A stretch of 64,000 nucleotides of DNA, from assembly GCA_038046805.1 (NCBI GenBank), contig JBBSVO010000003.1, positions 83,120-147,119 of the forward strand. Reading direction: 5' to 3'. The notes below the pieces were generated by a model, which was not told the origin of the DNA, ran no database searches, and saw only the letters and a list, made by a program, of their open reading frames with translations. The stretch is from Candidatus Micrarchaeota archaeon (lineage in GTDB: Archaea; Micrarchaeota; Micrarchaeia; Anstonellales; Bilamarchaeaceae). A program made the translations under genes and the position numbers. Positions 14,704-62,162 of the stretch are shown here, in pieces (the stretch's first letter is position 1; the number at the start of each line of letters is the position of its first letter).

Positions 14704-14759
14704 TGTTGTTCCGCTATCCGAAGAATTTTTAATTCCAATCCTGCAACGTTTTCTTATTA

Positions 14760-15048
14760 GCCCCAATAGCTCAGGGCCCTTTTGACTTCTGAAACCTAAA
14801 GACAAAAGCGTTACATTTGAAAAACGTTGTTTCGTTTTTCAAAATTTTGAACGATTCGTCGTTCAAATCTTCGGAAAAGTCCTTAGGCAGCATAAATCAA
14901 AAGGGACGAGTAATGGTAGAGCGCCTCTCTCGTACTTGCTGGTTCTGAGTCAAGCGTTTTGTGTCTTATTATCCAAGACACTGAACTGGAAACTCGAAAC
15001 CGGAAACAGGCAAGGAGGAGGTCGGGAGTTCAAATCTCTCTTGGGGCT
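14760..15048 (+). tRNA. tRNA-Thr(CGT) with 139-nt D-loop intron (14775-14913) and 78-nt 37/38 intron (14935-15012)
   Basis: Spliced 72-nt cloverleaf GCCCCAATAGCTCAG/TGGTAGAGCGCCTCTCTCGTA/AGGAGG...TTGGGGCT; BHB GCTC-AG|G ... GAGT-AA|T. Confidence 0.9.
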
Positions 15049-15095: not shown

Positions 15096-16034
15096 ATGGA
15101 AGTTCTGGTTACTGGCGGAGCCGGTTTCATCGGCTCGAATATTGTTGAAAGATTAATTTCAGAAGGTCATTCAGTTACTGTCATAGACTGCCTTAACACG
15201 GGAAGTGAAAACAACCTCGCAGGAGTGCGGGACAAAATCAAATTCGTTCGTGGGAATTCCGGCGAGATTGAAAAACTCGTAAGTGGAAAAAAATTCGATA
15301 TCATCCTCCATCAGGGGGTTTACTCTACTTCTCCATTATATAAGGAAAACCGCTTGCTCACCGCAAAGGCTCTGGAAGAATTTATCAACATACTTGAATA
15401 CTGCACTAAGAACGGAACGCGACTGGTGTTCGCGTCGTCTTCTTCTCTTTACAATGGAGTAACTCCTCCGCACCGCGAGGATGCTCAAATCAATGTAACA
15501 GACTTTTACAGCGAAGCAAGACTGGCGATGGAAAGAGTCGCAACATTATACCATCAGCTTTATGGAACGAAAATAATTGCCCTCAGGTATTTCAGCGTTT
15601 ACGGGCCTCATGAAGAGGCAAAGGGAAAATATGCAAATCTCATAACCCAATTCTTATGGGCAATGATGAAAAACGAGGCACCCGTAGTCTATGGAGATGG
15701 TTCACAGACAAGGGATTTCGTCTTTGTCAGCGACATCGTTGAGGCAAACATGCTTGCAATGAAAAGCCCGCTTGAGTTCGGAATTTTCAATGTTGGAACC
15801 GGGCGCTCTGTTTCGATAAACGGGATGATTGAAATTTTGAACAACAAGCTCGGAACGAAACTACCAATAAAATACGTTGAAAATAAGGTGAAGAACTACG
15901 TGGCGCACACGCAGGCCGACACCTTGCTGACAAAAACAAAGCTAGGCTTTTCTGCAAAGACATCGCTTGAGGAAGGAATCGAAAAACTGATTGAATACAC
16001 CAAGTCTCGGGCGTATACTGAACCAAATAAGTAA
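15096..16034 (+). CDS. NAD-dependent epimerase/dehydratase (UDP-glucose 4-epimerase-like)
   Basis: VTGGAGFIGS, FASSSS, LRYFSVYGP, GDGSQTRDF; YxxxK appears as YSEAR. Confidence 0.93.
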   Translation: MEVLVTGGAGFIGSNIVERLISEGHSVTVIDCLNTGSENNLAGVRDKIKFVRGNSGEIEKLVSGKKFDIILHQGVYSTSPLYKENRLLTAKALEEFINILEYCTKNGTRLVFASSSSLYNGVTPPHREDAQINVTDFYSEARLAMERVATLYHQLYGTKIIALRYFSVYGPHEEAKGKYANLITQFLWAMMKNEAPVVYGDGSQTRDFVFVSDIVEANMLAMKSPLEFGIFNVGTGRSVSINGMIEILNNKLGTKLPIKYVENKVKNYVAHTQADTLLTKTKLGFSAKTSLEEGIEKLIEYTKSRAYTEPNK

Positions 16035-16200
16035 TACCGATTCGGAATATTAGCATTTATCTCGATGGTTCAGTATCCAGTGATCTGCTGATCACTAGCT
16101 GTTCACCAATGTGGTGAACATAGATCGAGCCATCTACAACTTCGAAGAAGTTGGAGAGACAGAGAATGCAATTCTCTGGGAAAAACTTATTTGGCTCGGG
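16013..16200 (+). repeat. Structured repeat (family M), copy carrying two double-hairpin inserts
   Basis: Homologous to the reverse complement of 60002-60097 except for inserts 16076-16120 and 16132-16178. Confidence 0.8.
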
Positions 16201-16253
16201 CGTAAACAGGGATAAGCAAAAACCTTTTAATCTCCAACTTCTTTTATGATACT

Positions 16254-16904
16254 ATGACAGAACTTGCAAAGAAAGTCGAGGATGGAAGATTATCCTCTAT
16301 CCTGAATTCCATTCAGATAGCTCTGGACCATTACGACGATATATTCTCTGATTTTGACCCATCTCCATTTAGTCAAAGAATGCTTTCAGATGATTTTCTC
16401 AAGGAGATGCAAAAGAGATATATAGAAACTAAAAAAGGGGAGTTTGAAATACGGTTTTCACTTCCAGCTTCAATAAGAGATGTAAAAACAGAGGGCTTGG
16501 TAAAGAAACGCCTTAAAGATTATTTCCACAAGCAGATAAAGAACGTGGATGTGGAAGTTGAAAAAAGACAAAATGCGGGAATACAACGCGCAGGATTTGG
16601 ATTCGTAGTTCTTGCAATAGAGCTTCTCATGACAGTATATGGATTCACAGCATTTCCTCTTAATTTCCTGGGTGTGATATTGGTTCCGGCTGGATGGTTC
16701 GGAATGTATTCTGGATTTGAAATGTTCTTTGACCATCCGAAAAAACTCAATGAGCAGAAGAAATTCTACAAAAAATTCCACGATGCGATATATCTTTTTG
16801 TTTCGGAAGAGGAGATTCTTGAGAGCATAGAGACTACTTCAGATCAAAAACCACTGGATGTCGTGATAAAGGATATTACAGAACGTGAAAAAGGAAAACC
16901 ATGA
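16254..16904 (+). CDS. Hypothetical two-TM membrane protein
   Basis: LDHYDDIFSDFDP..LSDDFL N-terminal motif, two hydrophobic helices. Confidence 0.8.
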   Translation: MTELAKKVEDGRLSSILNSIQIALDHYDDIFSDFDPSPFSQRMLSDDFLKEMQKRYIETKKGEFEIRFSLPASIRDVKTEGLVKKRLKDYFHKQIKNVDVEVEKRQNAGIQRAGFGFVVLAIELLMTVYGFTAFPLNFLGVILVPAGWFGMYSGFEMFFDHPKKLNEQKKFYKKFHDAIYLFVSEEEILESIETTSDQKPLDVVIKDITEREKGKP

Positions 16905-19934: not shown

Positions 19935-20609
19935 CTACAATGAAAAGAACTCCGCACCCACGTTTCTTGTTTTCTCGTCAATCTCCGCAATACAATACCT
20001 TCCAAGCTTTGCCGCAGGAACTTTGATTATGTACGTGCTGCCAAGCATTGCCATGCCTTCAAGTTCATGAACATGCCCGCAGAACACGACGAGCGGCTTT
20101 TTTTCCTCGATGATTTTCCGCACTGACGAACTTCCAATGTGTAGATTCCCGCGCGGACTTGTAACTTCGTCAAAGAATCCGAGTGGGGGCACATGGAGAA
20201 TGAGAATTGTATTATTATCAATAGGAAGTTTTTGCATCTGTGTGTGAATCTCATCTTCGCTTAATTCACCCGGAGTTCCGAACGGAGTTGGATTTGATTT
20301 TCCGAAACCAACAACATTCAATCTATCTGCCAGCTCAACCCGCTTTCCATGCAGATAACCTTTATGAGAAGTAGATGATGAAACCCTCTTAACCGCATTT
20401 TCCGGTTCGTTATTTCCAGGGATAAAAAAACAGTTTTCAAATGACGAAACGACTTCCTCCAGAAACTTCGGGCTGTCGTTTGTAGTATCTCCTAAGATAA
20501 GGGTAAAAATGCATTTTGATTCTTCGTATTTTTTCCGCAATTCCTCAAACACGACCTCTTCGTCATGAAGGTCTGAGAATACGAAAACGTGCATGGAATG
20601 GTCAGCCAC
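19935..20609 (-). CDS. Calcineurin-like metallophosphoesterase
   Basis: SDLH, GD, PGNNE, HVPP, CGHVHE. Confidence 0.92.
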   Translation of the reverse strand: MADHSMHVFVFSDLHDEEVVFEELRKKYEESKCIFTLILGDTTNDSPKFLEEVVSSFENCFFIPGNNEPENAVKRVSSSTSHKGYLHGKRVELADRLNVVGFGKSNPTPFGTPGELSEDEIHTQMQKLPIDNNTILILHVPPLGFFDEVTSPRGNLHIGSSSVRKIIEEKKPLVVFCGHVHELEGMAMLGSTYIIKVPAAKLGRYCIAEIDEKTRNVGAEFFSL

Positions 20610-33218: not shown

Positions 33219-33473
33219 GGGCCCGTAACTCAGCTTGAACCTTTTGACTTCTGAAACCTAAAGGCAAAACGTTTCATGTCAAGAACGACGTTTCGTTCTT
33301 GAGCATGATCATGAACGGTTCGCCGTTCATGACATCGAAAAGCCCTTAGGTAGCACAAGTCAAACGGTTTCTGAAATGGTAGAGTGCCGGACTCTTATGG
33401 TCCTGAGTCTTGAGTTTAGAGTCTTGGGATTTAAGAAATCCGTTTGCCAAGGGTTCAAATCCCTTCGGGCCCG
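33219..33473 (+). tRNA. tRNA-Lys(CTT) with 141-nt D-loop intron (17/17a; 33236-33376) and 40-nt 37/38 intron (33398-33437)
   Basis: GGGCCCG/CGGGCCC-G, CCGGA CT CTT A..A TCCGT, AAGGG TTCAAAT CCCTT; BHB TCAG-CT|T GAACC...GGTTT CTGA-AA|T. Confidence 0.9.
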
Positions 33474-39964: not shown

Positions 39965-40272
39965 TTATTTTGTTTTCAATTCCAGATCCCGTGACTTGCG
40001 GTCACGATCTCTCGATGTATTTTCTAATACATCAAGATTCCAAAATTCCTTCAGCGCCAAGTCTACCCAAAAAGAAAATTTCAAACAAAAATTCAGATTT
40101 CTTCAAGGGTCGGGCTGGATATGTGGAATTAGCACGTAGTTGTGGTTGTTATGCCCGAATCCTTGCTTGCCATTTTTATCAAATAAATTACAGTTCAGGT
40201 TCTATTTAAAGGTTTGTCACGGAAAACGCGTTGACAATTCCATTTAAATACGTAATGTACCAACATAGAATT

Positions 40273-42992: not shown

Positions 42993-43130
42993 CCAATTGA
43001 ACGTCGCAACGTTCAATGGACCATAAAACGTTTCAACGTTTTATTGGTGTCGAAAATCTCGGATTTTCTCCATGTCGCGAACGACGATTCGTTCGCGAGC
43101 ATGTTCATGAATGCAATGCATTCACGACAT
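42993..43130. repeat. Hairpin cluster: family B-like (42993-43047), small hairpin, family A (43072-43130)
   Basis: CCAATTGAACGTCGCAACGTTCAATGG...; ATGTCGCGAACGACGATTCGTTCGCGAGCATG...GACAT. Confidence 0.85.
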
Positions 43131-60001: not shown

Positions 60002-60097
60002 CCCGAGACAGAAAAGTTTTTCCGTCTCGATCTATAGTGAACCAACGTTGTAGGATATTCGCCTGAAAGTCGGAGTTATTTAGTTGGTTCAGTATAC
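60002..60097 (-). repeat. Structured repeat (family M), copy without inserts
   Basis: Inverted repeat TATAGTGAACCAAC/GTTGGTTCAGTATA plus adjacent CGAGAC/GTCTCG hairpin; homologous to 16013-16200. Confidence 0.8.
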
Positions 60098-62047: not shown

Positions 62048-62162
62048 TATCAGCAGCAGCATGGGTTCCCACCCATAGGGTAGTACAAACATTGCCGTGA
62101 AGGGGCTTAACTTCTGTGTTCGGGATGGGAACAGGTGAACCCCCTTCCTATGGCCGCTGACA
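62048..62162 (-). rRNA. rrf: 5S rRNA, unlinked from 16S/23S in this window
   Basis: TGTCAGCGGCCATAGG...CACCTGTTCCCATCCCGAACACAGAAGTTAAGCC...GTACT...GGGAA...GCTGCTGATA. Confidence 0.93.

Follow-up and report, generated by a model that had tools for sequence, protein, structure and literature searches.

Within a 64,000-nt stretch of the genome of a Candidatus Micrarchaeota archaeon (assembly GCA_038046805.1, contig JBBSVO010000003.1, positions 83,120–147,119; the whole stretch is called the window), positions 16013–16200, at the end of an NAD-dependent epimerase gene, probably represent a two-hairpin repeat without genes, M, into which double-hairpin mini-elements of about 48 nt, X, have inserted twice; both families likely move as DNA with help supplied in trans. 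M and X each occur in many copies, their stems are kept by compensated base changes, and their presence at orthologous sites differs between this genome and a second one of the same genus (G001). X insertions have exact ends; they occupy unpaired spots of other hairpin repeats, the ends of genes and in-frame positions within protein genes. From these observations, we infer that M and X are non-autonomous mobile DNA. The assembly (1.2 Mb, 16 contigs, 42.5% G+C) was compared with 40 relatives, including G001, and genome counts below refer to this set of 41.

The host repeat M and its X inserts

A sequence-only reading of the window had proposed that 16013–16200 on the + strand (copy A) matches the reverse complement of 60002–60097 (copy B) once 16076–16120 and 16132–16178 are taken out. 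The remaining 96 nt do align with copy B, in 74 of 98 columns and with a score of 48, against −12.7 ± 4.8 and a maximum of 6 in 1000 shuffles. Copy B (− strand, E = 2.4e-19) is free of inserts and lies between two + strand genes; its fold, a pair of hairpins, is the same as that of copy A. In copy A, the 5′ arm of hairpin 1, TATACTGAACCA (16014–16025, + strand), pairs with 16066–16076 plus A16122 and closes a 40-nt loop holding the conserved AAGTAATACCGATT, and the 5′ arm of hairpin 2, CGAGCC (16126–16131, + strand), pairs with GGCTCG (16193–16198). The compensation reported for this second hairpin, CGAGCC/GGCTCG in one copy and CGAGAC/GTCTCG in the other, is present.

M was searched with BLAST, nhmmer and a covariance model (R1) made from 12 insert-free copies; the R1 match to copy A (C3:99128–99234, E = 1.8e-8) ends at the first insert. 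This genome has 23 M loci at E < 1e-3 and 27 at E < 0.05, in at least three subfamilies; copies are intergenic, in either orientation, and often abut a stop codon. The consensus runs ATA, a 10- to 13-bp stem around about 40 nt starting AAGTAATWCCGATTT, TAGAT, a hairpin of about 12 bp, and GGATAT. In the 12 insert-free copies, 12 of the 24 model pairs have changed on both sides (4/13 in hairpin 1 and 8/11 in hairpin 2). Among the 41 genomes, M is found in 10 at E ≤ 1e-7, all of one family and with 1–57 copies each, for a total of 143 matches. M can also nest: at G000:C2:125545–125955 a copy holds a second M and a double hairpin in its hairpin 1 loop, with a further M copy on the other strand 70 nt away.

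Each stretch removed from copy A consists of two adjacent perfect hairpins (C3:99198–99239 and C3:99256–99297), and both fold as claimed. Their bounds were nearly right, although the family model shifts them slightly. Insert 2 becomes a 48-nt X (ATCT-hairpin-GGAGAGA-hairpin-CTGG) at 16132–16179 on the + strand, in the upper part of M hairpin 2 (62.7 bits, E = 8.5e-13). Insert 1 becomes a divergent 45-nt X at 16077–16121 on the − strand (22.2 bits, E = 0.0026, over the whole model); it occupies the 2-nt gap between the two hairpins of M, with a junction that can be shifted by 2 nt (AT). Since both match the X model (R2), the two inserts are members of a single family in opposite orientation, a kinship that the sequence-only reading did not mention. 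That reading called them unrelated to its hairpin families A and B, and the 58- to 60-nt pairs at 33276 and 51780, which are probably A/B, score only 7.8–11 bits (E > 1). In a run of R2 on the window without filters, one further X copy was found at 39988–40038 (− strand, 51.4 bits, E = 3.7e-10) and a weak X-like match at 43021–43073 (− strand, 19.8 bits, E = 0.0099).

An alignment of 18 X copies, about 48 nt long, reads (A)TCTTC, hairpin 1, GGAGAG(M)(Y)A, hairpin 2, CTGG. In these copies 92.3% of cells are paired, compared with 69.7% in shuffles, and 13 of 16 pairs have changed on both sides, a number that none of 500 shuffles reached. R2 matches 20 X copies in this genome, and X is present in 15 of the 41 genomes. 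Insert 2 is most similar to an X copy inside an ATP-dependent DNA ligase gene (86% identity over 43 nt). That the unit is defined by its double-hairpin shape, as had been suggested, holds in part: stems vary with compensation, but the families keep fixed unpaired or basal motifs (ATCT..GGAGAG..CTGG), so shape alone does not define it.

Adjacent hairpins are a feature of this genome as a whole. Perfect hairpins (stem of at least 7 bp, loop of 3–6 nt) number 534, compared with 383 and 395 in two Markov-simulated genomes, and adjacent pairs of them number 78, compared with 2 and 2. A motif scan allowing up to three mismatches was too loose, except for a 19-nt core. X-like units also form head-to-tail arrays with periods of about 56–67 nt, at C4:102560–102800 and at C7:137169–137237 and C8:1–91, in which the joint of tandem units reads CTGGATCTT. 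Two of these arrays extend to contig ends, so arrays of this kind probably interrupt the assembly. Another repeat family, CCCATATCCCCTTTCTTTT...AAAGAAAGGGG CTGAGGGG...CACCCC, hosts X and other double hairpins in its loops (C2:38790–39250, C6:88256–88337 and C7:19657–19711); at the orthologous G001 site its first hairpin has no insert and its second part is masked by N.

Filled and empty sites in related genomes

At the epimerase locus of G001, M has an X in the corresponding position of hairpin 2, whose stems are different and fully compensated, and nothing between its hairpins, so that insert 1 is missing. This agrees with the earlier proposal that the inserts are mobile, as do their discreteness and exact junctions. 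Two X copies in protein genes have empty counterparts. In the ATP-dependent DNA ligase gene (PF01068, PF04675, PF04679), which lies outside the window, a 48-nt X at C6:230256–230303 is inserted in frame in the C-terminal domain and adds 16 residues; the orthologous genes of G001, G004 and G009 lack it. In a class-V aminotransferase gene, a 48-nt X at C7:134434–134481 is likewise in frame, is flanked by a 10-nt repeat, TTGTAAATCC, and is absent from the orthologues of G001, G020 and G002. Other X sites were less informative. The copies at C6:25642 and C13:40534 had no collinear match in G001; at C2:151795, G001 is shorter by about 69 nt in an alignment too poor to place the junction; at C2:39091, the G001 site holds N; and six X loci of G001 (L092, L093, L095–L098) gave only repeat or one-sided matches.

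For M, the orthologous G001 site of copy B is empty, with the flanking genes 19 nt apart there and 124 nt apart here. Conversely, when 10 M loci of G001 were compared with this genome, M was absent at eight, two were unresolved and none was retained. At a G001 locus (L102; G001:C95:12370–13180, compared with about 14711–15041 of the window), M adjoins the end of an intron-bearing tRNA gene; the tRNA gene lies upstream of the epimerase gene, and this genome has it without M. At another (L100; G001:C99:11460–12210), an M copy with an element of a 58-nt type between its hairpins and X in its hairpin 1 loop is part of 267 nt of extra DNA, at a site that in this genome is a gap of 1 nt.

Copy A overlaps a reading frame. 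The epimerase gene (15096–16034, + strand; PF01370, E = 1.3e-47) has its last seven codons, including the TAA stop at 16032–16034, inside M, and the protein ends YTEPNK. M is bracketed here by a 10-nt direct repeat, CTCGGGCGTA, with its left copy at 16006–16015 and its right copy at 16195–16204, both on the + strand, the latter overlapping the 3′ arm of hairpin 2. Read without M, the protein would end ...LIEYTKSRA with a TAA at 16203–16205; epimerase orthologues terminate 0–5 residues past LIEY or its equivalent. The M of G001 at the epimerase locus begins 18 nt closer to the start of the reading frame, so the two copies may be separate arrivals. On the 3′ side of M lies a 216-residue open reading frame (16254–16904, + strand) with no Pfam match, which is kept beside the epimerase gene in G001.

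The metagenomes that hold this organism are groundwater and aquifer runs. The filled sequence at 16032–16250 is identical in contigs from runs of four studies, three of which also cover 16024–16031, and one metagenome contig covers all of 15600–16600. The contigs of runs X7, X8, X13 and X14 on 15600–16600 contained no joint and no empty variant. Since the same filled sequence recurs in four studies, the locus is real DNA and not an assembly artifact.

Insertion junctions and a possible route of insertion

Most M matches are about 105 nt long, but 16 of the 143 span 132–162 nt and are filled; the window copy, matched only up to insert 1, is the seventeenth, and one further filled M of this genome scored just under threshold. 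Junctions were read at 17 loci from relatives and in three filled copies of this genome. Nine copies (that of the window and eight others, two with an identical insert) carry X on the upper 5′ side of M hairpin 2. These hairpins are of three sequence types, and the right flank begins AA in eight of the nine. Two copies (L031 and L100) have X in the hairpin 1 loop after a conserved CCG, with other elements elsewhere in this loop. The 2-nt gap between the hairpins holds insert 1 and, in three copies, the 58-nt type. A second family (CCG-hairpin-GGWCC-hairpin-YGG) sits just 5′ of the 3′ arm of hairpin 1 in three copies and in hairpin 2 of one. Removal of the insert from L029 leaves hairpin 2 of copy B, letter for letter. 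The sequence-only reading had named ragged, variable deletions as the outcome that would speak against insertion; instead, ends are exact across M copies. Structured repeats, which that reading suggested as targets, are not the only ones: X does enter unpaired spots of hairpin repeats, but the in-frame copies in the ligase and aminotransferase genes show that such repeats are not required.

If X and M insert as DNA, what do the junctions record? At 15 insertions the junction was ambiguous by 2, 0, 0, 10, 3, 2, 1, 1, 0, 1, 1, 2, 2, 5 and 4 nt. The mean of 2.27 nt compares with 0.73 nt at 20,000 random sites, and ambiguity of at least 2 nt occurs at 8 of 15 junctions, compared with an expected 18%. 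The repeated letters are mostly pieces of element ends: A, GA, GGA, GGAT (ATCC on the locus strand) and GGATTTACAA for X; for M, AT, TA and GGATAT, which flank the three clean M junctions among the G001 loci, and CTCGGGCGTA at copy A. The ends of X can be permuted by one or two bases, as the ligase copy runs CTTC...CTGGAT and the M-hosted copies ATCTTC...CTGG. No left-flank word is shared by the nine X copies in M hairpin 2 and the two in genes, although the last base is mostly A.

The most likely mechanism, to which we nevertheless give somewhat less than an even chance, is that integration is guided by a short match between element end and target. The end (...GGAT, ...GGATAT or AT) would match the target briefly, and a strand switch or annealing step would occur at that match. 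Such a process would explain the variable, terminus-like repeats of 0–10 nt, the permuted ends and the tandem arrays, and also why there is neither a fixed target word nor a duplication of fixed length. Hairpin loops and gaps may be favored because unpaired DNA is accessible and insertions there do little harm. The occurrence of at least five X copies in 8 of the 41 genomes, the same eight that have at least five M copies, together with the common ...GGAT-type 3′ ends, suggests that the two families share one route, although these genomes might also share both families through common descent. Exchange between M copies by gene conversion probably contributes too, as L030 and L034 have an identical hairpin 2 with X but different hairpin 1 sequences.

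Several considerations weigh against insertion by mobile DNA, or against the short-match route in particular. No enzyme that moves the elements was identified in our analysis, and no excised or circular form was seen. Three of the 15 junctions have no repeat at all, and the 15 are not independent, some copies of M with X sharing ancestry. Gene conversion between M copies, instead of repeated insertion, could have spread X in M hairpin 2. The contigs of the four studies are all filled, giving no polymorphism in the sampled populations. With its start offset by 18 nt, M at the epimerase locus may stem from different insertions in the two genomes. The stems of X contain G-T pairs on one strand, which makes a role as RNA possible. 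Finally, element ends as sharply constant as these would be expected of an enzyme more than of template switching.

Three familiar kinds of insertion were tried as explanations and set aside. A classical miniature inverted-repeat transposable element does not fit, as the ends of X (ATCT... and ...CTGG) are not inverted repeats and the junction repeats vary from 0 to 10 nt. The footprint of hAT-type excision would give loop-free palindromes of the flanks. For an archaeal bulge-helix-bulge (BHB) intron, 13 unpaired bases lie between the outer helix and the 3′ junction of insert 2, and no pairing is possible between the exons that flank insert 1.

That a dedicated enzyme moves M and X is a doubtful but serious alternative. 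Another, which we consider improbable, derives the double hairpins from IS200/IS605 elements, as minimal units of left end plus right end, akin to palindrome-associated transposable elements or REP sequences, moved as single strands by a resident HUH transposase of the Y1 type. This genome does have one Y1_Tnp gene (IS200-type), which lies within the window (C3:134483–134830), and one TnpB-type gene. The two-hairpin units, both supported by covariation, the lack of a target duplication of fixed length, the AA that begins most right flanks and the constant 3′ ends, CTGG followed by A, would all suit such an enzyme, as would the G-T pairs, which make one strand fold better. However, the left flank, where a fixed target of 4–5 nt is needed, varies (GAGCC, GAGAC, GACGG, ACAAG, GATCC, AGGAC), and the permutation of the ends also speaks against it. 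Nor do the genes track the elements. Among the eight element-rich genomes, a Y1 match (PF01797) occurs in four, one of them partial, and a TnpB-type match in four. Y1 is absent from G002 (20 X copies), G004 (5), G009 (15) and G016 (10), whose completeness is 71%–89%, and three of these (G002, G004 and G009; 84%–89% complete) show neither gene. Conversely, X is missing from genomes with many Y1 or TnpB genes (G034, G026, G015 and G013), of which G034 has 14 Y1 matches and G026 has 4. The short shared target motif of HUH enzymes for which the sequence-only reading proposed to look was not found, and the HUH idea gains no support from the distribution of Y1 and TnpB, although genome incompleteness and past activity keep it alive.

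We regard the two remaining alternatives as very unlikely. The first holds that there is no ongoing insertion and that a single ancestral composite of M and X multiplied, with present differences due to deletion and gene conversion. The module exchange implied by L030 and L034 and a degraded M remnant at C3:118743–118790 are in its favor. Yet X occupies five kinds of site, including two protein genes, and within M it sits in three sequence types of hairpin 2 at slightly different offsets. For each of the two genes, the counterparts in three other genomes are missing exactly 48 nt, and independent, precise, frame-restoring deletions are far less likely than insertion. The other, which we consider the least probable of all, is that M acts at gene ends as a structured non-coding or cis-acting RNA, with inserts that are either expansion segments or introns removed from the RNA. 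Both hairpins of M covary strongly, its loop motif AAGTAATWCCGATTT is conserved, it adjoins stop codons and G-U-compatible pairs are present. Against this, M lies in both orientations relative to neighboring genes, is missing at 8 of 10 orthologous sites and varies from 0 to 57 copies among relatives; the two inserts are oppositely oriented in one host M, X is translated in frame within two protein genes, and the junctions form no BHB. A search of the window with Rfam 15 at gathering score matched only the 5S rRNA gene (62048–62161, − strand) and neither M nor the inserts. ARAGORN found one tRNA-Gly in the window, unrelated to M, and its intron run showed no overlap with the double hairpins, though just 10 genes were parsed. 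None of the sequencing runs listed for this organism is an RNA run.

Relation to known hairpin elements and meaning

The nearest parallels are the double-hairpin elements (DHE) of Allomyces and Schizosaccharomyces mitochondria and the hairpin repeats of sponge mitochondria. They are described as short, multi-copy, two-hairpin units that are mostly intergenic, occur also in RNA genes and differ in presence between close species, with a transposase not known and a mechanism of mobility that is unknown or debated; flanking duplication is not reported for the Allomyces elements (PMC10085805; PMC2800124). M and X resemble them in being multi-copy units of two adjacent hairpins that are present or absent between close relatives. 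The setting differs: DHE are GC-rich and reside in organelle genomes, whereas M and X lie on an archaeal chromosome and have family-specific termini. X also differs from DHE in nesting in another repeat family, sitting in frame in genes and having short, terminus-like direct repeats.

Bacterial elements offer other comparisons. Rickettsia palindromic elements, of about 100–150 nt, occur in intergenic DNA and also, in frame, inside protein genes; X is likewise palindromic and occurs in both settings, but is 48 nt (16 codons) long and archaeal. The small dispersed repeats of cyanobacteria are single palindromes of 21–27 nt that occur in large genomes and insert into one another and into structured regions, whereas the units described here have two hairpins, measure 45–60 nt and occupy a 1.2-Mb genome. 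REPINs accompany a RAYT gene, which encodes a Y1 HUH enzyme, and have a conserved tetranucleotide beside the hairpin; here, Y1 genes do not track the elements and a fixed flank word was not found. M and X do resemble REP, BIME and REPIN sequences, as these are generally described (see also PMC3116915), in being palindromic, extragenic, often paired and non-autonomous, with compensated stems. Like archaeal BHB introns, the inserts are small and structured, but there is no BHB and their hosts are not known RNA genes. Within the literature collection that we searched for double-hairpin elements, Micrarchaeota and MITEs of DPANN archaea, no such archaeal elements were found. M and X seem to represent an archaeal form, so far undescribed, of a type of selfish DNA that is already known. 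What is new is family M, the common family of its inserts, the filled and empty pairs at the ligase and aminotransferase genes, the junction statistics and the phyletic test.

These elements matter for annotation, as M and X affect gene calls in metagenome-assembled genomes and tandem arrays probably cause contig breaks. They also provide many dated pairs of filled and empty sites for studying how hairpin elements move without a known transposase, as in mitochondrial DHE. A bolder proposal, which we put forward tentatively and consider rather unlikely in its entirety, is that the mitochondrial double-hairpin elements have chromosomal counterparts in M and X. As a class of mobile DNA, M and X would then need no transposase of their own, spread by short-homology-guided copying at GGAT/AT-type ends, turn over almost wholly within one genus, rewrite gene ends and, in an ultrasmall archaeon, lengthen essential enzymes, DNA ligase among them, by loops of 16 codons. 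If M and X are mobile, a genome of only 1.2 Mb tolerates dozens of nested hairpin parasites, and their arrivals would have altered its proteins, with the epimerase gaining the ending YTEPNK and DNA ligase and the aminotransferase gaining 16 residues each.

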